A stretch of 64,000 bases of DNA from Lingula anatina (GCA_051362555.1 CM120648.1:10846587-10910586); one strand, 5' to 3'. Shown: positions 5,421 to 30,764, counted from the stretch's first letter. Numbers and translations are program-made. The notes: generated from the sequence alone by a model not told the origin.

Positions 5421-7976
5421 ATGGCTGCTGCAGGGCCCAGCTCAACTACAGACTGGACTGAGTGTCTTGAACAATGCCGGGAAATCCTTCGTACAAGCAC
5501 ACTAAGTGTAGATATTCTCCTTGGTGCCTTGGTGTCCAACGATGTTGTGACGACTGAGGAGGCGGCAAATATCAAACAGCTGTCAACTGAAGCCCCTGCA
5601 CGGAAGGAAATTGATTTTATTTTAGACCTTCTTATTTAAAAGGAAATTTCAGCCTCAGAGATTTTTTTCCAAACAATCAAAGTTCATGAACTATGGATAA
5701 TAGAAAGATTGCAACTGGAAGGTTCGTATATTTTAGGTAATGGAATGAATTTACTGGAATCAGTAATCTTACTGTGATGCTTGATTGATGATATCTTATC
5801 TTTCCTTTCCGTTTGTTAAAGTTAAAGTTAACCCCTTTGCATGTGCGTATAACCCAGTTCTTTTTCTTGTAACATATAAGCAATTGCGAAAACAAACATA
5901 TTTTGTTTCAGGAATTCCCGTGAGTCAGTTTTTGGAATGTGACCCACTAACTACAGAAGCTGATAAAGTGAAAGAGACAGAGAGTGAAGCATCTGACAAC
6001 ACTGCTCCTCCACGATCGCAAACTGCATCTGAACTTGAAGAGGAGGAAAAATGGGACAAGCTACCGCAGTTGTGGTTTAGAGCCACGAAATTGCAATTTG
6101 GAGAGGGCGTTCCAGTTGTTCCTCTCGTTCAAGTTGCTTGTGATTCTACCTTTACGGAGGACGATCCTGTTGCAAAATATGTGAAGCAAAGTGTGCATAC
6201 GAACGGGCGTCTTTCAGGGGTGCGGCAATTTAGAACGTATGGGAATGTTGTTAACGAAACAAGAGGTGCAGTTGGCATTGTCACGCTGAAAAAGCTACCA
6301 GTGGCACGGGTAAATAGTTTTGGTTTAATTTTTTAAGATTATTAGGAATTTTGTTGTGTGTAACACTGAAACATATTAGGGCAATGTTAAAATAATATGA
6401 TTCATATCTCTGCACTTTTTTTTCAGGAATCGGAAGCTATAATCCAGATATATGAATGTTTTCGCAGTAAAGGCGGTTCGTTTGTGCTTGTGCTCAACTA
6501 CGATACTTTTTTTGTCAACCAGTCTGAAAAACCTCGTGTGCTCAGATGTCTACTTGAACACTACAGGGGTAAGACAACAAAGGACTACATAAAAGTCGCG
6601 CAAGGATTAAGTTCATCAATAGTATTCCCTCCACTCGGAGACAGTGAATTCGTTTACAAGTACATCAAAAAGTTAGGACTGCAAACTTGTAAGCGGATTG
6701 CGGAAAGAACAAGCCCATCATCTGTAAAGGATGTTGAAAACATGATAAAAGAGCTAGAAGAAAAAGATCCAAACACATCACCTTTGTCTGATACTGCAAA
6801 AAGTCACCTGTTTAAGTGAGTGTGTACATAAAGCTTTTCATCTTTTAACAGTCAAAATATGCAAAACAAACAAACAAACAAAAAAAAAATCACAGTGTAG
6901 CAGTGAAGAAATAAGATCACTTATTGTAATAGTTTGTTTAATCAATTTTAATTTTTCCTATTGATTTTCTACATGTATTTATGACATAAGTGTGTGGTAG
7001 TGTAAATTCAATAAATGCGAGTATGTTGCATAACTATAAGACTATTTTTGCACTTTTTTTCAGACTTTCCTTTGTAAAAGGGTTCTGTGTCATGGCCGAG
7101 ACACCTCATATCTACATCCATGAGGAACAGTTTGGTGACCGTGAAACACATAAACAGGTGCATGATATCGTATCGCCCTATTTTGGTGACCATTATTTTA
7201 TATTGGAATACTCTAAACAGTCCCGTTTTGTACCTCTTGTCTCACTTAAGCCAGGGGAGCCTATATTCCGCAACCCCCCTAATATTAGGAAATACGGAAC
7301 TCTCGGTGCTTTACTTGAAGTGCGCCAAGGATCTGCCCCCGAAGAGCATGATTGGTATGGCTTAACATGTGAGCATGTTGTGGGAGAGAGTGCTTCAATG
7401 ATGATCAGAACGGGGAGAAATTCGTTTTATGACTTTGGCGAAGTGGCATACAAGAGAGATATCACTAAAACTAAAAAAGATGTAGCCCTCATAAAGATTA
7501 ACCGTGGGTGTTGCCCCCTATTTACCCATGGGCACACTGATGTTCGTAGAGACCTTAAAGGAATTCAAATGAAGAAGGTCCGAAAGACTGGCGCTCAAAC
7601 CGGGGAAACGTACGGTATTGTGGCAGGCACTGATTGTGACTTCCCAGATCATGGTAAAGACTTTATATTACTTTGTTCGGAAACACGATCAGCTCTTTTT
7701 GCAGAGGGAGGTGATAGCGGTTCTATTGTTTTATTAGATGATGATTGTGAAGTAGAAGCATTGTCCATACTTGTAGGCAAATTCGACAGAAGGGACGACG
7801 TTCCTCAGTCGGAAGTAGAAGGGAGTGACCACACTTTTCATCCGGGGCTAGAAGAGAGCGAGCACCCCGTCGCTGGTGGCAGTTCAGCGTCTGATACGAG
7901 GGGTTTTTGTTTGCCGAGAGTATGCTTTCACCCTTCATTCCAAAGAACACACAAGTATTTTATTCCGACACATTAA
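5421..7976 (+). pseudogene. Disrupted paralogue of the CARD-serine protease gene; exons 5421-5721, 5912-6309, 6427-6815, 7064-~8035
   Basis: Exon boundaries match the intact copy. In-frame TAA at 5637-5639 where the paralogue has TTA (Leu). After ILVGK there are 137 nt versus 12 nt in the paralogue, which puts the homologous SMLSPFI..YSDTLT..LDQIKN segment out of frame. Triad motifs TCEHVV, DVALIKI and GDSGS are retained. Confidence 0.8.
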
Positions 7977-9411
7977 CAGTAACTCTGGATCAAATAAAAA
8001 ATAACCAAGAAAAAATTCGAGAGACAAAATTCTAGAATACATTGATGAAGTAAGCAGACACCACAGTCTCTTATTCGTTCGGCGTGTTGATCCAAGAAAG
8101 CCAGTTGCTACAACGCGGTGCATGCTATGTAGACAACTCCGTAAATCTGGGCTTATCAGTAGTGTTGTCTAAACATGCAAAATTGAACAATGGCGAGCAT
8201 GCGTGCCCTAAATCGATAAATGCCGTCACCTAAGAGTAAAGTATAAGTAGCTTACCTTATCGCATGCAGATTCTTGGACGGTTTGCATCTTCAAATGACA
8301 CCATTTTAGGCCATTCTCTAGGCTTATCAGCTTGTTAACATGAGTGTAGCATGTGACTGGAAATGTTTATAGATAAGACACCGCCGTGAGAGGACAGACA
8401 AAAAGCTATTATTCAGTGAAAGACACAATAAGACAGTCTGTGAAAACTTTGCAGTGTGATGGTAATGTAAGGCCAAATTAACCCATTTCTCGGTCTGTAA
8501 AATTTACTTGTATGCGCTACAGACTCCCGAGATGATTTGTCTTCTCCTTTCCATTCACATTGGATAAAGGTTTCCTATTTGCCCTATTTAATTTTGGCAC
8601 TAGAGCAAGTTCATTATTAAATGACAATGTTGGAAAAATTAAAAAGGACCGAAGAAATTTAGCGGGAAATAACTCCAGGAGTATTTCTTGGTTCGAAAAA
8701 AAAATGCAGCAATCTTTAGAATAAAACTTGGAATTCTGCCAAGAGGATGGCTAAATCTATTAATGCATGTTCTTGTTGACAAAAAGAAAAGAGAAAGCAT
8801 CTTCACCGAACAAAATATGTTGGCGTGTTTCCTGATAAATTTGGTCATTTTAGACAACAAGTGAGTAATAAAAAGCAACAATTTTCACACCAAAAGGTGT
8901 AAACAACCAAAAACATTGGTTGACGAAAGGTTAATGACAACGAGTAAGATTCTGTTCAGACATTGGCTCTATTAAATCTGACGCTCTCGGTGTCAATTAA
9001 AATCATAATTTCGTCCGCAAACTCTAATTCTATGTGATGCTTCTTGCCTTGTAATTGTCGTGGCGTTACCTATGACAGGGACGTTGGTGGTTCAAGTTAT
9101 ATGTCAATGTTTATACAGCAACATATCAATTGGATGATTGTCAACAAGGTGGTGGGGACTACATGACATTAGTCACATTCACCTGTTCAATAGATAAGGT
9201 AGAGAGAATTCCCATTAATCCAGGAGGTGCAATGTTTAATTACTGATCGTCCTTTTGACAAAATGTTAATTAAACCTTTTTGCGCTTATTCAAGGTATAA
9301 CGTGACAGTAATACAAATTATTTATTTGGATGTTAAATCCATTTGATATGTTCTGTAGACCTTTCAAATAAGAGACGGGGTAAAAGGGTTGTTTTAGATT
9401 AAAAAAGCCAA

Positions 9412-12550: not shown

Positions 12551-14024
12551 TGACATACGGCTAGGAAGAAAATTATAGTTATACAAAATTAACACAATTT
12601 TTGAACATGTTCAGTAAAGTTCATTTAGATTTTTTACTTCAAACAACAGTACAATAAAAAGTTGTTTTTAGCCAAAATTTGGCTACCAGCAGATATTTCC
12701 TCAAGGCCAGAAATGCGCAGCATTCACGCGATACGCGAGGGCGCTACAGTAGGGCTTCACGTAACTCAACAAGCCAGTCACAGCACAACAATGGCATCGC
12801 ACACAGACTCTGTGATAAGTGCTCGAGGAGCCAAAGTTGACTACCAAAAGCTGGCAAATCCTACCTATTCATTCCCTGCAAAACGTATCAGATTACACAA
12901 AAAAAGCCCAGGTGACAAATTACACTTCCAAGAATGCATTCTAGATCCCCTCAGCATACCTATCTTAACTCTAGTGGTTATCATAACTAGGGCAGGTAAC
13001 TACCTGGCCGGGCTGGCAACTTTTCAGAGTTACCTGCCCTGTGGTCTGGCTAGTAATTTCCTTGAATTTCATACACTGTAATTACTAAATGATGAAAGGA
13101 ATTTTGGATTAAGAGGTTATAATTAGTTAAATAGTGATATTGTCAGTCAATTTATTTAGAATCTGGTAATATGATTGAAAATACTGATTGAATTATTGGC
13201 CTTGCACTGGGCAGTTTTACATTTGTGCCAAGTGTTTTATTTTTAAATCTTTTTTGGACTTCTTTGTACAGTGGTAAAAGTTCTTCAATTGCCATGAAAG
13301 TTTTTAATCAGACTCTGTATGGTGCTGCCATCTGCTGGTGCTATCGGCAACGAATTAGTTTGCCTTTGTTTCTGAGTGAATCTACCGTCTAAAATCACTA
13401 TTTCTGAAAATATTTGCGTTTTGCTGAGGGAAGGCTAGGCAATGCACGGCAAACTTCTTAGTACGTGTGTACAACAGAATTTTTTAAAAGCACTAACGAT
13501 ATTTGGTCAAGAGTTGCTTGAAGCATAGCACAGCGTTGCTGTCTATCGGCATCAGGCTGTTAGTTTGTCAATTCTCACGAATTACCCACGAATCGCGAAC
13601 CCATTCATTTTCATATGGCAATCTAGCAACCCATTAAAAATGCACGCATGCACAGTGGGCTAGGCGTGACGTCATGCAGTGCATTTCTGGGGATGTGATA
13701 TCTCAACACAGAGCAGGTTGAGGCTTGCTGGAGCGTGGTAGGACTGATGACATATTTAAAGGGATAATAACTCTTCGTATGAGATCTATATTTCACCATA
13801 AAAACATTGTGAACAACTCTTAGAAATATAATATATCCTGCTTTACCACAAAAACGGTAGTTATAGCTATTATTCTGATATTTGAGCTTGTCTTTAGACC
13901 ACGTTACCTACGTTGCTGGCTATACTCTGTTATAATCTCTTAAGAGATCATGACAAATAAGACAAACTTTCAGGAAAAAAAACAGGGACTAACTTTAAGA
14001 ATGATGTGAATTTTTCTTCAGTCA

Positions 14025-14092
14025 ACAGCTAATACTGAGATAGGTTTTACCTCCAATATTTCGATGTCTATCAGGACATCTTCTTCAGGGAA
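14025..14092 (-). ncRNA. Hammerhead ribozyme-like motif in the PLE pseudo-LTR (3' copy)
   Basis: Minus strand reads CUGAAGA-A-GAUGUC/CUGAUA/GACAUC (stem II)-GAAA-UAUUG..CAGUA (stem III)-UU. Minimal hammerheads are an established feature of PLE pLTRs. Stem I is not obvious. Confidence 0.6.
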
Positions 14093-14146
14093 TGAGGCTA
14101 TCCAGGTGAATAGCCTCTACTCAGGAGGTGTACTTGCCCCCCCCCC

Positions 14147-16609
14147 CTATTGTGTTAGGAAAGGGAGGTAGAGGTCAGGGAGGATGGCACCATCATTTCT
14201 GTTGAGACTGGCCTCTGTCTTTTTGATGTGGATGGCTTCTAAGACTTTTCTGTAATTTTCCCTTGGTTCACTATCAATCACCTTGATTTTGTCGATTATA
14301 GGACCATATGCTACTTTATGTCCGGATTGTTCTTCATGCTGGCTTAATGCTGACTTGCTGTCTCTATTATTGACCGATTTTTGGTGTTCGGCTATTCTCT
14401 CTGACACTGATCTTCCCGTTTCACCTATATATTTCTCACCACACCCCTCACATTCAATTTCATAGACAACTCCACACTTTTCATTGTTGTCTAATGGGTC
14501 TTTGGGACTAACTACTGCATTCCGGATGGTGAACCCTGCTTTGTTGTACAAGTTAATGTTGTATTTTTTAAATGTCCGTTGTAAGCGTTCCGAGACCCCC
14601 CTGGTGTAGGGTAATACAATGACTTGTTTTTTCTCTTTTTTGTCACTGTTTTGAGCTGTGGTATGGACACTTTTTTTGTTTTTGTTTCTTTCCCATCTTT
14701 TCTCCTTCTTTTAATCCCCATTCCGGATATCCACAATTTCTGAGAGCTCGTTTCACCTTTTCTTTTTCAATCGCCTGTGTCTCTCTATCTTTAACCAAGG
14801 TCTCAGCCCTATACATAAGTGTCTTTACAATCCCAAGTTTTTGATATACTGGGTGGTGTGACTCCCAATGTAGATATTGGTCTGTGTGGGTGGGTTTACG
14901 ATATATGTCTGTTGTGATGGTATTTTCTTTTCTGGTCAGTTTTAGGCCCAGCATGGGTAGGGATAGTTGTTCATCCTCTTTCTCCATAGTAAATTTGATG
15001 TTTGAATGTTGTTCATTGATATGTGCAAACAGCGCCTCTTGGTGTTGACTTTGGATGACCACTCCAGTGTCGTCTACATATCGTCCCCAGAACTTGGGAG
15101 GATGAACTGCTGTTGTTAGTGCCTTCTTTTCAAATTCTTCCATGAACAAATTGGATAACACTGGGGAAAGAGGTGAACCCATGGCCATACCATAAGTCTG
15201 TTCATATATTTTATTTAGGAATCTGAAGTAGGTGGTTTCTATTACCATTATTAGAAGTTCCCCAAATTCCATTGGTGTCATTTTAGTCCTTTCATGCCAG
15301 CTGTCATCATTTTCTGCTCTATCCCTGGCCATAATCACCACTTCATCTCCTGGTACACTGGTGAAGAGGGCTGTCACATCAAACGATACCAACACCTCCC
15401 CATCCTCTAACGTCACCTTTTCCAATTTTTCAATAAGGTGTTTAGAATTCTGAACATGGTGAATGGATTGGCCCACCAATGGTTTTAATAGATCCGCTAA
15501 GTGCCTGGCCAGTGAGTAAGTGATGGAGTTAATGCCAGACACAATAGGTCTCATTTTGAGGGGATCCTTATGGATTTTAGAGGTGGCATAGAATCTAGGT
15601 GTGACATCTGATGTTGGGTAGATCTTGTTGTATATGGCCTGGTCAAGGTGATCTGCTTTCTTCAGTTCTCTTAGTTTCCGCTGGATTTTTCCTTTCAAGG
15701 TCTTGGTTGGATTGGCATGTCCCTTTTCTCGGTACGTGTTGGTATCAGCTAATAATGATTCACACTGAAATATAATCTTTCTTATCCATGACAACCACTG
15801 CTTTGCCTTTATCAGCCGGAAGTATGATTATGTCTTTGTTGCCTTTTAATGATTTCAGGTCTTTTCTTTCTGCTGTTGTTATGTTGGACTTGGGGACTTC
15901 TGCATTTCTAAATATCCCCACTACTTCATTGCGCAGTAATTCTGCTGACTCTCTGTCTGATGTTTCTAGTTGTTGGCACATGACTTCTGTTGCTGTGATG
16001 ATTTGTTTAGCTGGTATCTTTGCAGGTGTTATGGCAAAGTTAAGGCCTTTAGCCAATACTGATATTTCCGCCGCTGTAGGTTGGTATGTGGACAAAACTT
16101 TTACCCATTTTTTAAGCTGTGTTCCACTAAGGTCTATCCTTTCTGGTTCTTGTTTGCTGGTGGTGTTTGGTTTGGGTTTAAGTTTTTCCAGTTTGTCCAC
16201 TTGTGTCTGTTTTGATTTGGCAAAGGTGGACTCATAAGTGTTGGCCATATGTAGTCTGATGTTACTGAGGGTGTCATCATTATTGTCTGTTTCATTCAAG
16301 TACTTCGATGCGAATGACTGTTCACATTCTTTCCTCTTGTTTTCCAGCTGTTTGACTCTATTATGTGTATTATGTTCCTTTCTTCTAATAGGGCTTTCTC
16401 TGCTTTGCTAATTATCTTGTTAGCTCTCTCTGTCCTGATAGTAGTTCTAAGCCTGAGGCTACAAGGCACCAAGTCCAAGTCTTTACACCTGAGATTGAAT
16501 CTGAGGTGATTTTTAAATCTTGCCAGTTGTTTTTCAGCTTTTCCCAAATCCTGACATGCCGTACACCTCCTTTTCCATACTTAGTATGTAAGTCAGAGAA
16601 AAATTTCAT
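14147..16609 (-). pseudogene. PLE reverse transcriptase / GIY-YIG endonuclease ORF split by several frameshifts
   Basis: ORF-track segments 16412-16609, 16296-16547, 15760-16299, 14643-15794 and 14147-14551 continue each other in different frames. Confidence 0.9.
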
Positions 16610-16654
16610 CGGCTGTGTTAAGTTATAAGAATGATGTGAATTTTTCTTCAGTCA

Positions 16655-16732
16655 ACAGCTTATATTGAGATAGTTTTTACCTCCAATATTTCGATGTCTA
16701 TCAGGATATCTTCTTCAGGGAATGAGGCTATC
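16655..16732 (-). ncRNA. Hammerhead ribozyme-like motif in the PLE pseudo-LTR (5' copy)
   Basis: CUGAAGA-A-GAUAUC/CUGAUA/GACAUC-GAAA-UAUUG..CAAUA-UA; one mismatch in stem II. Confidence 0.55.
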
Positions 16733-16896
16733 CAGGTGAATAGCCTCTACTCAGGAGGTGTACTTGCCCCCCCCCCCCCCCCCCCCCATTGTCTTAGGAA
16801 ACCTCTACCTCTACCTCCCTTTCCTAAGACAATGGGGGGGGGGGGGGGGCAAGTAACTTAACACAGCTGATGAAATTCTTCTCAGGGACTAACTAA

Positions 16897-18097
16897 GATA
16901 CAGGCAATTATCTAACTGTTATAGGTGTCAAGTTATTAACCTGAAGAGGCGGAATATAAGCAATGTCAGAATATCGATACAATTGTATTGTTCAGTCAGA
17001 ACCGTGCAGAGGGCCTGGTCTCGGTATAGAAACACTGGATCAAGAGACAAATTGCCTCTGATGGGTCGTCCAAGAAAAACTACTGGCCGTGAAGACCGAC
17101 GACTGATTTTGATGTCCAAGTTGTCAAAGTTCGACACTGCTTGTCAGTTGACAACACAGTGGAACAATTTCACACATAAGAATGTGTCTGTGAAAATTGC
17201 TAGGCGTCGGTTACATGCTCAGAGAGTGTACAGCAAGGTAGCAAGACTGAAACCTCTTATATTGTTACCAAACAGGCAACGTAGAGTGAACTAGGGTCAA
17301 CAGGATCTGGAACTGGACAGTCCATGACAATTGGTCCTATATATTTTTTTCTGATGAGTGTCGCTTTGGTCTGACCTCTGATGACAGACGGGTATGATGC
17401 TGGCGAACTGCTGGTAAAGCATTTGAACCACATGCACTGAATTTTCGAACCCGGAGCAGCATATTCATCATGGTGTCGGGCTGTATCACCATCCATGGCG
17501 TGGGCGAATTGATAGAGGTTGATGGAAACATGAATCACTAGAAATATATCCATTTTTTGGAGTCAGGCTTGCTACCATCTATTACTTACATGTTTTGTGA
17601 CAGGAATTATCCATTTGTTCACCAGGATGACAATGCTCCTTGTCACAGGCCCTGAGCAGTTGATGATTGGTTTGACCAACAGGACATTCGCAGGGTGATG
17701 TGGCCTGCCCAGATTCCGGATGCAAACATAATAGAAAATGTGTGTAATGATATGTCAAAACTTTTGACAAATGCCCGTCTAACCAGCAGAGAAACTCTGT
17801 TATATTCAGTGTTTCATGCTTGGGCCAGCATAAGCCCTGAACGCATCAGACAATTATATGAATCCTTGCCTCGTAGACTGGCACCTATTATTAGGTCACG
17901 TGGCTATGCCACTAAGTACTAATTTTGGACTTGAAACTGCATATTTTGGAAGAATGTATATTTTGTTCTCATTTTGTGATTTTTTGTGAAATTTGATGTT
18001 AATAAAATGATACCAGGAGCATATCATTCCACAGTCATTTATCTCCCCCATAGTATTGGTTCAGTAGGGGTGACACTTCTATTGTCCAGTGTGTGTA
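16897..18097 (+). mobile_element. Decayed Tc1-family (DD34E) transposon
   Basis: HTH region (CSVRTVQRAW..GRPRKTT), FSDECRF, HQDDNAPCH, WPAQIPDANIIENV and SRGYATKY*, with several stops and frameshifts. Probable right TIR ends ..TGTCCAGTGTGTGTA near 18097; left TIR not found. Confidence 0.85.
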
Positions 18098-21878: not shown

Positions 21879-24800
21879 ATGGCTGCTGCAAGGCCCAGCA
21901 CATCCACAGACTGGACTGTATGTATTGAACGTAGTCGGGAAATCCTTCAGACAAGCGCACTAGGCGTAGATATCCTCCTTGAACCCTTGGTATCCAACGA
22001 TGTTGTGACGCCAGAGGAAGCAGCAAATGTCAAACGATTGTCTGTTGGAGCCCCTGAACGAGAGAAAATAAATTCTCTTTTAGACCTCCTTGTTTTAAAG
22101 GAATTGGCAGCCTCCAAAATATTCATCCAAACAATAAAAGTCCATGAACCATGGATAATAGACAGTTTGCAATCGGAAGGTTCGTGCATTTCTTTGTTTT
22201 TTTTAATGGAATATTTTGATTATTTTAGCTAATGAAATGAATTAAGTGAAATCAGTAATATAACGGCGCTGCTTGATTGACAATATCTCTACCTTATCTT
22301 TCTCTTTCGAAGAGCAGTTTGTTCGTAAAAAAATCGACAATTAAAGACAAAAAAATTAAATATATATTCCAATAATAGGTTTGGAAAAGAGAACCCCTTT
22401 ACAGGTACCGGTACGTATAATTTCCATCAAACCTCAACTTACATTTAAGTCTCATTTAATTTCTAATTATCCCGTAATCACCACTAACCGAGAGATTTCG
22501 TGAGATTTCAAACCCGTTGTTGACATCATTGTTTTCCTTAGGATATAAATCAAACAATGTAGTTCAATATACAACATTGGTCAAAAAGGTTGTCCCACCC
22601 CCATTTCCATGCACTTTTATTTACAAATGATCACCTTACAGGTGTATATTGTTATAAACGGTGCTTTTTATTCTAGATGCCATGTCTAACATGATTAATG
22701 GTTCAAAAAATACAAAATAGTGGTGTGGATATGCACATTTTATACCATTTAGTCAAATTTATATCAGGTACCCCCTCAAAACCAATGTTTCACTGTGATT
22801 TCCACAGATGTAAAGAAGTGTCTATTAAATTTAAAAGACGCCATCAAATGTCACTAAATTTACACATAATTAGCATTAGGATGTGCTCGTTAAAGGTCAC
22901 GTGCCTAATAGCGTGTGCGTCTACCGCATACTGTAATTATCTCCTGTAGATGGCGCGACAAGCCTCCAACAAGGGTTTTATTCTGTTTTGTGGGATATTG
23001 CCCCATCCATCCTTTAGAGCGTGGCGGAATTGGTCCAGATTATTTCGGAATTGGTTCTCCTCTGCAATGCACATTCCAATTCATGCCACAGGTGCTCAGT
23101 AGGATTAATATCAGGGCTCAAAGACGGTTGTCCCATCCTTAGAGCCCTGTGTTTCGGCAACAAATCACTTGCCAGACGAGAGCTGTGAGCCAGTGCGTTG
23201 TCACAATGAAGCCGGTAGCATCCCTGAAGTCACCTCTTGCAAATGGAGTGAGCTATCTGTTGAGAATGTTACCGTAAAATGGCCCAGTTACGTTTTGTTC
23301 CAGAAAAAAAATGTACTGATACCACGGGCTTGGAATGTTCCCCAAATGCCGACTGATCTATCACCTCAGGCGATATTATCCTGCACACACCCTTCCAAGA
23401 GGCATTTTTCAGCATGTCTATGGACCCTCATTTGACCATCGATGGGATACAAGAAATAATTTGATTCTGCAGCAAAACCGACTTCCTTCCAGTGATGGAT
23501 GTCCAGGTTCAGGTCCCTGTGGGATCACTGAAAGTAACATTCTCAGCTGATATCTCACTCCATCTTCAAGAACTGACTTTTGGGTTAACTCCAGGCTTCA
23601 TCATAACAGCACAGTTGCTCACACTTCTCGCCTGGCAAGTAATTTGTTGTAGAAACACAATGTTCTAATGATGGAACCACCATCTTTGAGCCCTGATATT
23701 AACCTTACTAATCACCTGTGACATGAATTGGAGTGTGCAATGCAGAGGAGAACCAACCCCATAAAAACGTGGACCAACTCCCCCAAGCTGTTTAGGAAGA
23801 ATGGGATAATATCCCACGAAACAGAATTTTTATCCTTGTTGAAGGCTTGTCGCGCCATCTACAGGAGATAATTGCAGTACGTGGTAGACGCAGGCGCTAT
23901 TAGGCACGTGACCTTTAACGAGCACATCCTAATGCTAATTGTGTGCAAATTTGGTGACATTTGATGGCGTCTTTTCAATTTAATGGACATTTCTTTACAT
24001 CTGTAGAAATCACAGTGAAGCATTGGATTTGAGGGGGTACCTGTTATAAATTTGACTAAATAGTATAAAATGTGTATATTTTCACCACTCACCATGTTAG
24101 ACATGATATTTGGAATAAAAAGCACTAGTTATAACAATTTACACTTGTGAGCTGATCATTTGTAAATAAAAGTACTTGGAAATGGGGGTGGGACAACCTT
24201 TTTGACCAATGTTGTACATGTATAATATTCCTTATTTCATTTAAAAGTTCAAAGTTCACAAATAAAATTCAATAACTACGCTTAAGTTCCACCTTTTTTT
24301 TATCTTATCCATAATTCTAACCTGATTCTAGGACAATTCCCCCGGTCATCCCCCCCCTGGGCAATCACCCCCAAGGAAAATATATATATAAATCAAAGGG
24401 TGTTTTAACTTAAATATGGAATGTTTTTTATCATTGTTATTTTTGAGTGCTGATTAAATTTTTATTGGCTTGGTTCATCAAAAAAAAAAAAAAAAAATTT
24501 TCACTGAGTGATAAAAAATATCCAGTCTTCTGTTGTATGATATTTTGGTTAATAATATCAAATCTGACATGAGATGTCCTTCAAAAGAAAATAACACCCC
24601 CAGAAAACCATATCAACTGTTTGATGTCAGTATTATTTTTAAGCTAAGATATTAAAGAAAATGATAGCCTGCGGACAGTGATATGTTACACAGTCAGAGA
24701 ACTCATTACAGTAAATCATGAAAAGTCATCAATAGCGGGTATGACTTCCAGCAGCCGCTTGCAGCGCCCTCATCCTACATGGCATACCCTGTGACAAGTT

Positions 24801-25598
24801 TTTTAGAGTTTGGAAGGGGATATCATTCCACTCAGTGATATTTGCCTGTCATATTTCATCACAATTTACCGGCCGATGACCATAGCTATTAATTCTGTGA
24901 GTTACTTCCGCCCACAGGTTTTCAATTTGGTTCATATCTGGGGAGTTTGCAGGCAGGCCAGGGCAGTTGCTGAACCCATTGGTTTCGAAGAAAAACAGTG
25001 ATTCTGCGAGCTCGATGTGCGCAGTTGTCTTGGTACACAAAGTTCCCAGCGGGCAAATTATGTTGTTTTAACGCTGAAACAACGTTGAACCATAACGTTG
25101 AGAAGACATTGGATAAACATTGGATTTGAAAGTTGTGTCAACCTCAGATAACAACGTTGTATCAACGTCAGAAAACAATGTTATATCAATCCCACCCAGC
25201 GGAAAATTATGTTGTTTCATCGTTGAAACAATGTTGAGCTTCAACGTTGACAAGTCGTTGGATTAACATTGGATTTGAAAATTAGATCAACGTCAGATAA
25301 TAATGTATCAACCCCAGTTGTTGGACAACATTCTTACATAAAAAGAAATTAAAATGACCTGAAATGTTTTTATTTTTGGTACAAAACACAGGTACACAAT
25401 TATAAAGTACACTGTAAAAACATCCAAGTGCCTGCTTTGTCTGATTTTTTCAACGCATTTAGCTCTTAAGCATGTTTTGCACCTAAGCATGGTACACCCT
25501 TTTAGTCTGGATGTGTTTAGCAGTAGGACATGTTTGATGGCTAGATATATGTAGGGTATAAATGTATGGCCTTTAAGTTAAAATTGCCAAGGTTTAGA

Positions 25599-25666
<68 letters not shown>

Positions 25667-28600
25667 AAGATAACTATAACTATATATAACAAAGTCACAG
25701 TATAGCTGACCTTGGAAGGAATTCAGTTTATTCGAATGTATTTCTGTATAACAAGTTAAGAAAATGCACTAGTTCACTAAATACACAAAACAACTGTCAC
25801 TTTTACTTTAAAACCCTTTTGTTATTATTTTGATAAATTTAGTTATAGTATTGATAAACAAAGTATCACGTTTTCAATAATTAATATTTTAAATTACAAT
25901 CCATAACTGCAAGGTTTTGTCAATGACCAAAATACAACGTTGAGCCAACGTCACATTATGACGGTGTTTTGACGTGGCTGGATCAACGTTGATTTTACGT
26001 GGAATTTAGGTAGATCAACGGCAATTCAACGTATCAACCTGTTTTCAACGTTGATCCTGGCCTGCTGGGTTGTTCCTGAAGATGACTCTTACGAATCGAA
26101 GCATTGTTTGCTGTAGAATGTCTCTGTGGGAACCCTGGTTGAGGTTGCCTCCTAGAAAAAACAACTGGTTCTGGGCACGGGCATGAAATGCTCCCCAAGC
26201 AGAGACGTTACCACCCCCTGCTTGCACCCTAGGCCGTACACAATCATCGTTTTATGCCTCTCGTACACGTCGGAGGACACGAATTCGACCGGGTGCCCCT
26301 GTTGTGGCATTTCTTTGGAGGACTTTACTAACGGTTCCTGATAAATGCTGAATTGCCTGGCAATGGCTGTCCGTTTCTGGCCATTTTCTCTGAGAGCAAG
26401 AATTCCATAGTAAGCTGCGTTGCTTAGCTGTCGAACCATATCTTCTATAAGTTACCTATCAAGTTTCAGAGCGATCCCTTCGTTGCTTCTCTAAATACAG
26501 TCCAAAGATTGGCCAAACACATGTGTTTTTATACAAGGGCAGAAATTGCCGAAAAGACCACACCTCACATTACTGACCACAGAACATGCAACTGCATGCA
26601 TGAATTGTTTCGAGAGTTGTGTGGTAATGAGGTGACACACCTGTCCAAACATGATGTGACTCTCCAGTTTTGGATTTAAAGTAGTTAGGGAGAAAATAAA
26701 TATTTTGTAGGAAATTTACTCGCCAAAAGATAATATTCCATATTAAGTAGTAACCCTGTATAATCAATTGCAAAGACAAACATATTTTGTTTCAGGAATT
26801 CCCGTGAATCAGTTTCTGGAATGTGAGGCACTAACTACAAAAGCTGATAAAGTGAAACTGACAGAGAATGAAGCACCTGACAACACTGCTCCTACGCGGC
26901 CGCAAACTGTATCTGAACCTGAACAGGAGGAAAACTGGGACAAGCTACCGATGTTGTGGTTTAGATCCACGAAATTGCAATTTGGAGAGGGCGTTCCAGT
27001 GGTTCCTCTCGTCCAGTTTTCCTTTGATTCTATATTTCCGGAGGTAAAGAACGATCTTGTTGTAAAATACGTGAAGCAGAGTGTGCATACAGACGGGCGT
27101 CTTACAGTCGAACGACAATTTGGAACATATGAGAATTTTGTTATCGAAACTAGAGGTGCGGTTGGGATTGTCACGTTGAAAAAACTACCAGTGGCGCAGG
27201 TAAATAGTTTTGTTCTTTTTAAAAGATAATTAGGATTTTTGCTTTGTATAACACTAAAACATATTAGCGCAATATTAGAGTAATATGATTCATGTTTCTG
27301 CGCTTTTTTTCAGGAATCTGAAGCTATAATCCAAATTTATGAATGTTTTCGCAGTAAAGGCGGTTCGTTTGTGCTTGTGCTCAACTACGATACTTATTTG
27401 TCAACCCAGTCTGAAAAACCTAGTGTGCTCAAATGTCTTCTTGAACACTACAAGGGGAAGACAATGAAGGGCTACATGAGAGTCGCGCAAGGGCTTAGTT
27501 TATCAATGGTATTCCCGCCACCTGGAAACAGTGATTTCTTTTACAAGTACATCAGAAAGCTAGGACTGCAAACTTGTAAGCGGATTGCGGAAAGAACAAG
27601 CCCATCATCTGTAAAGGATGTTAAAAACATGATAAAACAGCTAGAAGAAAAAGATCCAAACACATCACCTTTGACTGATACTGCAAAAAGTCACCTGTTT
27701 GAGTGAGTGTGTACATGTATATTTTCGTCTTTTAACAGTCAAAAAAAAAAAAAAAAAAAAAAACACTGTGTGGCAGTTAAAGAATACGATCATTTATTGT
27801 AATAGTTTATTCAATCAGTTGTAATGCATATTTTACTGTGATTTTCTATCCCATAAGTATGTATTATTGTAAATACAATAAATGCAAGTATGTTGCATAA
27901 CTATAAGACTATTTTGCACCTTTTTTCAGACTTCCCTTTGTAAAAGGGTTTTGTGTCATGGCCGAGACACCTCATATCTACATCCGTGAGGAACAATTCG
28001 GTAACCGTGATTCCCATAAACAGGTGCACGATATTGTATCGCCCTATTTTGGTGACCGTTATTTTATTTTGAAATATTCTGAGAAATTTCGTTTTGTACC
28101 CCTTGTATCACTTAAGCCAGGAGAGGCTATATTCCGCAATCCTTCCAATCCGGAAATATACGGAACTCTCGGTGCTTTACTTGAAGTGCGCCAAGGATCT
28201 GCGCATGAAGAGCATGATTGGTATGGCTTAACATGTGAGCATGTTGTGGGAGATAGTGCTTCAATGATGATCAAAACGGGGGACATTTTCTTTTCTGATT
28301 TTGGTGAAGTAGTATACAAGAGAAATAGATATGAAACAGAGAAAGATGTTGCCCTCATAAAGATAAACCGTTCGCTTTACCCCACAAACACCCTTGGACA
28401 CATTGATGTTTGTAGAAATCTTGAAGGAATTCAAATGCAGAAGGTCCGAAAGATGGGAGCTCAAACCGGGGAAACGCACGGCATTGTGGTAGGAACGGAG
28501 TGTGAATTTCCTGAATATGGTAAAGAGTTCATATTGCTTTGTTCAGAAAAACGTTCAGCGCATTTTGCAGAGGGAGGTGATAGTGGTTCTGTTGTTGTAT

Positions 28601-28944
28601 TAGAAGATAATAGCAAATTAGAAGCTTTGTCCATACTTGTAGGAAAAGTTGAAAACGGGAGTATGCTCTCCCCTTTCATTTCAGAGGACACACAGGTAAT
28701 CTATTCCGACACCTTAACAGCATCTTTGGATCAAATAAAAAACAGAGTGGCTTCCTTTTTGAGCGACATGGATCTAGGTGGCATTTACCTACCATTCATG
28801 GCTGATAGATACTTGCACCACAGATCCCTTAAACTGCTGAAGCATGCATCAGAAATCAGATTGCATGTTCAACCGAGCGAATTGAAAAAGCATGCATCAG
28901 AAATCGGATTACATGTTCAGCCGAGCGAAGTGAAGACGGGGTGA
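21879..28944 (+). CDS. CARD-domain + uncharacterised middle domain + NAL1/Ssy5-like (clan PA) serine protease, intact copy; coding exons 21879-22179, 26796-27199, 27314-27702, 27930-28944 (702 aa)
   Basis: All introns are GT-AG with matching phases 1,0,2, giving 2109 nt with no internal stop. Exon 1 (IERSREILQTSALGVDILLEPLVSNDVVTPEEAANVK..EKINSLLDLLVLKE..FIQTIK..PWIIDSL) has the six-helix CARD hydrophobic pattern. The last exon has GTLG..GLTCEHVV (His), KDVALIKI (Asp), VRKMGAQTGETHG and FAEGGDSGSVV (Ser). The paralogue at 5421 has the same exon structure. Confidence 0.85.
22572..24214. mobile_element. Tc1-derived fold-back element with ~570-bp inverted arms, in intron 1 of the CARD-protease gene
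   Basis: TA-flanked termini CAACATTGGTCAAAAAGGTTGTCCCACCCCC / GGGGGTGGGACAACCTTTTTGACCAATGTTG. Arms stay complementary to ~23135 and ~23673, and each carries a Tc1 transposase C-terminus (SPDIN..HL..EL..EEWDNIP..RGRRRRY*). Confidence 0.85.
24392..26760 (-). mobile_element. Decayed Tc1-family transposon in intron 1, interrupted by a MITE
   Basis: Minus-strand fragments MVRQLS..AIARQF, GGGNVSAWGAF, FRNNFVYQDN (rejoined across the insertion) and PANSPDMNQIENLW. Degenerate TIRs AGGGT..ACTTAA(A)TATGGAAT near 24397 and 26735-26760. Confidence 0.75.
25045..26069. mobile_element. EnSpm/CACTA-like (CCC-terminal) MITE nested in the Tc1 element; contains (AT)n at 25602-25664
   Basis: Termini CCCAGCGGGC / GCCTGCTGGG, 2-bp TT duplication and many subterminal CAACGTTG repeats. 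Removing it restores the Tc1 reading frame. Confidence 0.75.
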
Positions 28945-30764
28945 TGATGATGATGATGATGATAGTATAATGCGTAGATGTGAGGACGAATGCGAATCAC
29001 AAACGATATTTTCACTTTTTTCACGCTTTCTGGTCCCTTTTTTCATAGCATTCCTGACTTAATATTTAAGCACTGCAAGTAATATTTCAAACCCAATACA
29101 ACCTTGTATTCATACTGTGCAGTCCAACGGACACCGTTGGTCTTCTTTGCATTGGGTAAAACTGGTCGCTTCTACACTGACTGCAGTGCTGTCGCCAAGT
29201 TATCAAAATGAAATAGAAATGTTGACAGGAATAATGCTCCCTTGAATAGTCGCACTATAACACCATCTTAACGGCTAAGTTTTTCGTTATAAATATGGGC
29301 CTTATACCGTTTGGTCCATAGATTTGCATAGGCGTAGAAGTTGGAGGTTGTGCCACCCCACCACGTCATCTTTTTTAATCGCCTTTTTATCTCCATAAGC
29401 GCCTACATTATCATCTTAATCTTACATTCCACAATGTCAAAAGCAAATAGAAGTTGGTCAAACATGCATTGTTTGTTCCACCGATTAAATCCACGGGTTT
29501 AGAGTTTTTATCTCATTTTTGTGATAATTAATAATATATGTAAACCTCTCTTTTACACTCAAACCAAACCACTTAATTGTGCTAACCGTTAGAGACATTA
29601 GAGCGTTTTACGTTGATAACGTTTATTTAAGCGTTTGGTAAATTTTAAAATAGAAAAACTTTTATGCTGACCATAGATTCGTGATTCTGCCATTCTTTAT
29701 AGATATTATTTGAAGTACTTTGTAGGGATATCACTGTGGCAGTAAATCGGGATTTACTCCTCTTTTTTATCTTATAGAACATATTTCGTTTCAAATATGT
29801 ACACTTGATATTGGCATATTACATACGATGGCTTTAAATAGGACATTCGCCAGATAATTTTGCCTTCTCTCTTTATGGGTCTGAAGAATGGATTGCAGAT
29901 TAGGGAATAAAATTAAAATATTTTTGTAAATGTTTCAGAAAATAATGTAAAGAATATAGCAGGACTAAGAGAATTGGGTAGGGCAACCTAAGAAAAAAAC
30001 ACGCTTTCCAATCAAATTCTGGATAAGAAGTGTAGAAAATACGGAATAAGATAGATATGCTAATCTCGTGCCCTTATGTATGACTGCAACTGAAAGGGTC
30101 ACATGAGAAGCACATGGTATGCGCAACAACTTAATGGTCATGTTTTAAGAGATGTTTGTTGCCTTTAAGGAACAGGAAACATAGCTGCAATGAGATGGAA
30201 TTACATATTCAGGGTACTGGACTTGGCATTTATGAATAATTTTAAGAATATGGATTCGTTATAGTAAGTGTAAAAGTTTTGAACAACTGTGTTAATATCA
30301 AAAAGGGTCATAAGCCTTTTGCTTTAAGTAAAAGGTGTAGTTATGTACATGTAAAGAAATGCCGTGGGTGGTTTGAAATAATATCCTCATTTTTATGGAA
30401 TACGAAGTCTTGAAACCGTTTAATAACCAATTGATAAAGGATAAAGAAAAATGAAAGATATCTAAATTGGCCTTGTCAGAGATGCGATTTTAATACCACT
30501 TCTAGTCCTGTAGGGTAAATATTACACATCTGGAATCTTATTGTTTTAGAAAACAACAAGACAAAATTAAATTCATTAACAGTGGGATGCCATATGTAGT
30601 ACGGAATAAAATAATGTCTTGTAATCAGTCTGTGAGCAGAACTGAAGATATCGCATATTAATATTATAATCATAAAGGAAATATTTCTTATCCCTGAAAA
30701 GGCAAAAATATTAAATCTCACACTAGACACTCGTGTAGATCCGATAGACGTTATGCAGAACCCG

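Follow-up and report, generated by a model that had tools for sequence, protein, structure and literature searches.

A Lingula anatina gene pairing a CARD with a NAL1-type serine protease, a candidate for CARD-recruited proteolysis

Analysis of a 64,000-nucleotide stretch of the brachiopod Lingula anatina genome (GCA_051362555.1 CM120648.1:10846587-10910586, hereafter the window) identified, at positions 21879-28944 of the plus strand, a gene that joins a CARD to an intracellular chymotrypsin-fold serine protease of the rice NAL1 type. In animals, a CARD-recruited protease is taken to be a caspase. The pairing of a CARD with a NAL1-type protease appears new for animals, and such CARD-protease pairing has so far been described only in bacterial anti-virus systems. 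Neither an animal NAL1-type protease nor an animal CARD-serine protease was found in the open literature, with subscription papers and supplements outside the scope of that search. Neither turned up in the available text of PMC12799240, PMC12642450, PMC13736523 or PMC11463336, and a prior listing is possible in Gerdol et al. 2018 (Lingula immunity) or in the tables of PMC8195603. The latter describes bacterial death-like domains fused to trypsins, with no animal case among the passages listed (12 of 17).

Gene structure and protease class

Four GT-AG exons with intron phases 1, 0 and 2 (Table 1) encode 702 amino acids and one stop codon (2109 nt). The first-pass annotation, made from the sequence alone, had described a spliced reading frame of this length starting with a CARD-like pattern. 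Splice sites, matching phases and a single terminal stop bear out the former, and the latter is confirmed by residues 15-99, which match Pfam CARD with 29.3 bits against a cut-off of 23.9 (E 9e-7, 82 of 85 profile positions). All six PDB matches of exon 1 at E<=10 are to the NOD1 CARD, each of them weak (E 0.06-0.3). Taking the ATG at 21879 as the start, a hydrophobicity scan gave neither a signal sequence nor a membrane segment (the highest 11-residue mean in residues 1-30 is 0.43, and the highest 19-residue mean, 1.23, falls within the CARD), in agreement with the absence of a signal peptide claimed earlier. A longer N-terminus is possible, since a splice acceptor lies 8 nt upstream of this ATG and three RNA reads on a tandem copy of the gene (copy A, with the gene itself as copy B) continue into an exon upstream of the CARD exon. 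That upstream exon was searched for within the window and not found.

The protease is encoded by exon 4. The complete catalytic triad that had been proposed is present and in register, with His469 at 28240-28242, Asp504 at 28345-28347 and Ser583 at 28582-28584, and all five motifs quoted by the first-pass annotation occur in the exon (GTLG, LTCEHV, DVALI, KMGAQTGETHG and FAEGGDSGS). All 12 aligned family members share the His and the Asp, and at least 90% have the Ser. When compared with the PDB, a 12-member family profile matched rice NAL1 at E 1.5e-14, followed by DegQ at 5e-3. Structure comparison used an AlphaFold model of paralogue P0001 (built from a 31-row alignment and lacking the CARD), with pLDDT mostly 81-97 over residues 261-510. 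The leading Foldseek ranks were all NAL1, and VIA placed NAL1 (Z 18.0, rmsd 3.2, 204 aligned residues) in a tie with an alpha-lytic-type L5 protease (Z 19.2, 173 aligned). By profile and Foldseek, the protease is of the NAL1 type, nearer to NAL1 than to other trypsin-fold proteins of known structure.

The earlier label of NAL1/Ssy5-like stands for NAL1 by these two methods and is not carried by Pfam, where Nal1_C reaches 20.6 bits (cut-off 26.1) and Peptidase_S64 17.8 bits (cut-off 23.6; E 0.0012, catalytic half alone). Pfam Trypsin_2 matches exon 4 below its cut-off, and Pfam Trypsin has no match at E<=1 in this protein. The contrast drawn with the disulfide-rich S1A trypsins also holds, as the protein has no hydrophobic leader, carries a Glu at the place of Cys191 and has only four Cys in the whole protease domain. 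The protease part likewise falls outside the caspases, being chymotrypsin-fold by profile, Foldseek and VIA in place of a Peptidase C14 domain with its His-Cys dyad.

Between CARD and protease lie an acidic linker, a middle domain and a pro-domain. The linker has low pLDDT in the paralogue model, and exon 2 has no Pfam match above cut-off. The pro-domain has pLDDT 83-92 in P0001, is common to the animal relatives and occupies the position of the ATP-binding domain of NAL1 or of the pro-region of alpha-lytic protease; atlas structure rows for it bear the names Pro_Al_protease and NAL1_N, which serve as leads only. The middle domain (residues 147-350, about 200 aa) has no Pfam match above cut-off, and in the atlas it gave no feature match and structural matches of TM <0.5 only. 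A weak AIG1 match in relative P0045 (E 0.0024) prompted a reading of this domain as a degenerate P-loop GTPase, which was rejected as unproven: a profile of the N-terminal regions of eight relatives scored the middle domain below shuffles, and the hhalign probability was 0.1%. The CARD-less members P0045 (Potamilus), P0012, P0011, P0044 and P0047 have a long N-terminal alpha/beta region in common.

Table 1. Features of the CARD-protease gene (copy B) and of its tandem copy, in window coordinates
Feature	Position	Strand	Description and basis
Exon 1, coding part	21879..22179	+	CARD, aa 1-100, followed by a phase-1 intron; Pfam and splice sites
Intron 1	22180..26795	+	4616 bp, repeat-filled; self-blastn
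Exon 2	26796..27199	+	Acidic low-complexity linker, aa 101-146, then first half of the middle domain
Exon 3	27314..27702	+	Rest of the middle domain (alpha/beta followed by long helices, as predicted) and helix 1 of the pro-domain; paralogue model
Exon 4 (27930-28944) start, pro-domain	27930..28108	+	Alpha-beta-beta-alpha-beta, aa about 352-425
NAL1-type chymotrypsin-fold protease	28111..28753	+	Profile against PDB, Foldseek, VIA
Shortened C-terminus	28754..28944	+	tblastn with paralogues; VIA alignment
Out-of-frame terminal-helix remnant	28946..29062	+	tblastn with paralogues P0001 and P0006
Tandem copy A	5421..8170	+	Exons 5421-5721, 5912-6309, 6427-6815 and 7064 onward; tblastn, blastn

Copies, transcripts and relatives

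Compared with its paralogues, copy B shows two in-frame deletions, one of an acidic insert and one of a Cys-containing segment. The deleted parts are modelled as disordered in the paralogue (pLDDT <50), and the core helix and last strand are spared. In the shortened C-terminus, the counterpart of the final NAL1 strand is present twice, as a tandem duplication, and is followed by the stop; the VIA alignment with NAL1 extends to P0001 residue 684. The stop itself (28942-28944) arises by a frame change that leaves a paralogue-conserved tail of 36 aa out of frame. This remnant is 50% identical to P0006 over 36 aa in the other frame, and both P0001 and P0006 keep the terminal helix in frame.

The exons of copy A are 81-92% identical to those of copy B. 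A TAA at 5637-5639 in exon 1 and frameshifts after about 7900 in exon 4 make copy A a pseudogene in this assembly, and the tandem duplication and pseudogenisation noted at first pass are thereby verified. Intron 1 measures 190 bp in copy A versus 4616 bp in copy B. The dN/dS between the copies is 0.40 over 597 codons (0.41 in the CARD and 0.41 in the protease), a value that points to constraint without sign of positive selection, so that the further claim of a fast-evolving immune family is left with circumstantial evidence only.

RNA reads were drawn from six of nine same-species raw-read runs (X1, X4, X5, X7, X8 and X9), of which X5 yielded 0 reads. At 80% likeness, reads of related copies fall on the exons of copy A (52, 41 and 52 reads in three runs, only in exon bins), and the sole joint among those listed on copy A connects exon 1 to exon 2 with GT..AG borders and a 190-nt skip (5 reads, two runs). 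In UniParc model P0003 the CARD is likewise spliced to exon 2, whereas the RefSeq model now current for its gene begins at exon 2. Because the joint reads come from related copies, the CARD-exon 2 joint is established for the gene family, this exact copy excepted; the junction check suggested at first pass gave the exon 1-exon 2 joint in related copies and no joint on copy B itself. Expressed reads match copy B rather than copy A at 22 of the 34 checked sites listed, these being 40 listed rows minus 6 outside the aligned exons, with 96 further rows beyond those listed. Intron 1 of copy B collects reads of 90-99% likeness. It contains an inverted pair (22567-23272 and 23534-24219, about 700 bp, 83% alike) that is well covered by RNA reads of other copies and is likely a non-autonomous DNA element.

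Family searches yielded 17, 3 and 27 proteins. The nearest are Lingula anatina XP_013391972 (66% over 580 aligned residues) and XP_013402590 (75% identity in the protease part), and the gene's own protein is absent among the proteins returned. Named animal members come from Lingula, Saccostrea echinata, Crassostrea gigas, Crassostrea angulata, Ostrea edulis, Pinctada imbricata, Potamilus streckersoni and Dreissena polymorpha; judged by sequence similarity, the protease family spans a brachiopod and at least seven bivalve species. The bivalve records seen (oysters, pearl oysters and freshwater mussels) are labelled 'uncharacterized' or 'hypothetical', and the atlas adds, as leads, two mollusc clusters (65 and 69 members) together with fungal and bacterial clusters. 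The work points to an unannotated protease family in these bivalves.

Of 40 relatives scanned with Pfam, two show a CARD, P0003 with a match below cut-off and P0014, and both are Lingula-type. Since the other 38 have no CARD, the domain appears to be a lineage-specific graft on an older protease family; the two longer-protein searches were insensitive (one missed P0014), and CARD fusions outside Lingula are possible. P0014 (Lingula XP_013402192, 1786 aa) is a single-chain CARD-STAND-TPR-protease model with intact triad motifs. Its CARD scores 45.1 bits, NACHT/NB-ARC is below cut-off, TPR is present and Nal1_C is above cut-off, as it also is in P0012. P0014 is an automatic gene model and resembles an NLR-like sensor with a built-in serine protease. 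P0003 (UniParc UPI00078A32CC), a 1552-aa model with a second partial CARD at 933-965, looks like a fusion of two or three tandem copies and would represent another tandem array of the family. P0038 (914 aa, from an 11-member Logan cluster) has three Ig domains before the same protease, with an oyster protein as its nearest named relative.

In one cluster near the oyster proteins, unspliced and spliced forms diverge within one codon of the exon 3/4 boundary, and in another such pair they diverge about three codons before it, which hints at an old shared intron at this place. A tree of 34 protease cores is unresolved, with 5 of 31 inner branches starred. The animal sequences cluster beyond shuffles (0/500) but require 5 changes, and a single animal clade is not rejected (p-AU 0.376). 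The tree holds no plant or fungal sequences and leaves out some bacterial matches lacking the cut-out motifs, so a donor or transfer cannot be named from it. The nearest bacterial match sits among two-component genes, and 7 of 401 genomes of its phylum carry a match. A defence-type neighbour, a KAP-family NTPase or a SIR2-domain gene, occurs at two of six new bacterial loci, L004 (2386-3424) and L005 (2724-3539), and no CARD neighbour was found at the six; this is too thin for calling the bacterial family defensive.

A frameshifted reverse transcriptase with GIY-YIG (13996-16777, minus strand), bounded by a 152-bp direct repeat (97%), is likely a Penelope-type retroelement between copies A and B, and a Tc1/mariner transposase remnant lies at 16893-17922 on the plus strand (HTH_Tnp_Tc3_2 and DDE_3, below cut-offs). 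Numerous short exons coding for Ig, laminin G and EGF domains lie at 37159-63927 on the minus strand. They probably belong to the 3' portion of a perlecan-like gene in tail-to-tail orientation with the protease genes.

Possible function and alternative readings

In our judgement, the chances are slightly better than even that the product is a cytosolic zymogen which its CARD recruits to an immune or cell-death scaffold, where clustering switches on the cleavage of a specific target. The cytosol would be its location, given the absence of a signal peptide and of the S1A disulfide pattern. CARDs have an established role in CARD-CARD recruitment, and such contact would bring the protease to a signalling scaffold. 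The pro-domain would hold the protease inactive, as in Ssy5 and SltB, until oligomerisation switched it on, as in NAL1 and FAM111A, and the Ser583 protease would then cut its target. In NAL1 the triad is out of place in the trimer and correctly arranged in the hexamer, so that oligomerisation is required (PMC12012508); FAM111A is dimerisation-dependent and antiviral (PMC10920703), and SltB self-cleaves before cutting its target (PMC4985261). In LypA, a bacterial CARD-trypsin, the CARD binds an NLR partner and the catalytic Ser is needed (PMC13236601). The Lingula protein is likely an immune signalling protease. An immune context is suggested because the sister gene P0014 fuses the same protease to CARD-STAND-TPR, and this NLR-like gene strengthens the immune or cell-death interpretation of the first-pass annotation, which is plausible.

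Several observations weigh against this interpretation. As 38 of the 40 relatives scanned lack a CARD, the family works without one. P0014, being an automatic gene model, could be a false fusion, and its CARD has no blastp match to that of copy B, so the two genes are not a recently co-evolved pair. At 90% likeness in four runs, read depth on exons 1, 3 and 4 of copy B does not exceed 1.6, and none of the 13 joints listed is an exon joint. The reads on copy A are mostly 80-95% alike and therefore come from other copies or alleles. The conserved C-terminal helix has been lost from copy B by the frame change, and PADLOC models (2023 library, which may lack CARD-protease models) gave 0 matches for the four exons at E<=0.05.

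NAL1 and SltB, the eukaryotic relatives that have been characterised, have transcription regulators as their targets and are not immune enzymes (PMC12012508, PMC4985261), and the Lingula enzyme could act in the same way, after a stress or developmental cue, with the CARD as a grafted docking module. The rarity of the CARD among animal members and the absence of positive selection fit such a role. We nevertheless consider it unlikely, as the fusions of this protease to a STAND-TPR sensor and, in another relative, to three Ig domains are typical of invertebrate immune shuffling (PMC8998645). We see a slimmer chance that copy B is decaying within a birth-and-death array, so that the architecture is real in the family and the product of 21879-28944 is unstable or dispensable. 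The broken state of the neighbouring copy A, the two deletions, the tandem duplication and frame change near the end, the 4.6-kb repeat-filled intron, the very low read depth and the lack of exon joints all agree with decay. Against it, the reading frame stays open over its 2109 nt, every splice site and the triad are preserved, the deletions leave the modelled core untouched, and expressed reads carry the letter of copy B at most of the checked sites listed. Finally, the CARD might dock the protease on caspase-Y, CRADD or RIG-I-like receptors (RLRs) and cleavage might damp their signalling. CARD docking carries no sign of direction, and Lingula has six caspase-Y paralogues and CRADD without APAF-1 and caspase-2 (PMC11463336), but the STAND-TPR fusion in P0014 suits an effector better than an inhibitor, and we regard such a brake as very unlikely.

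If recruitment by the CARD to an immune scaffold is correct, the gene, with its NLR-like sister P0014, would add a second chemistry for CARD-recruited proteolysis in animals, mirroring bacterial anti-phage systems. A wider idea, which we put forward tentatively and think doubtful, is a caspase-independent intracellular immunity of lophotrochozoans in which CARD-protease initiators, CARD-STAND-TPR-protease sensors and Ig-protease forms would cut a death or signalling effector (for example a gasdermin or an IL-1-like protein), re-creating the bacterial CARD-NLR-trypsin logic. Grafting of CARD, DED and Ig domains is common in lophotrochozoan RLRs (PMC8998645). APAF-1 is missing from molluscs, annelids and brachiopods (PMC11463336), and the CARD-protease genes are candidates, open to direct testing, for a part in the CARD signalling of these animals.

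Comparison with known systems

The CARD-linker-protease layout is that of the animal CARD caspases (caspase-1, -2 and -9 and the lophotrochozoan caspase-Y) and suits activation by induced proximity. Caspases, however, are cysteine proteases of another fold, and the homology ends with the CARD. Human FAM111A is also an intracellular animal trypsin-like protease; it is not known to have a CARD, and the 42 PDB sequences that the family profile matches at E<=1 do not include it. Its dependence on dimerisation and its antiviral role, cited above, are nonetheless points of likeness. Fungal Ssy5 (Peptidase_S64) and Aspergillus SltB are chymotrypsin-like proteases that signal in the cytosol and carry an extended regulatory region at the N-terminus (PMC4985261). 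That region is a pseudokinase or pro-domain where the Lingula protein has a CARD, and the S64 match is sub-threshold.

Rice NAL1 (Pfam Nal1_C PF25819; PDB 7y77, 8pme and 8pn2) is the best solved relative, being intracellular with the same motif set and carrying a small alpha/beta domain ahead of the protease, which in NAL1 is the ATP-binding domain (PMC12012508). Unlike the Lingula protein, to which it is about 22% identical, NAL1 has no CARD and is a hexameric cage that degrades transcription regulators (PMC12012508).

Closest in domain order are the bacterial CARD-NLR/gasdermin proteases of Lysobacter, Azospirillum and Caulobacter (LypA). Here the CARD matches animal CARDs and has its own exon, and the C-terminal ATPase domain of LypA is absent. 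In Lingula, P0014 is a candidate of the STAND-TPR partner type. The likeness to the bacterial proteases is probably convergent. The bacterial parallel drawn by the first-pass annotation holds at the level of architecture: in both cases a CARD-type domain stands N-terminal to a trypsin-like protease, and the bacterial enzymes cooperate with a STAND-TPR protein (PMC10312443, PMC13236601).

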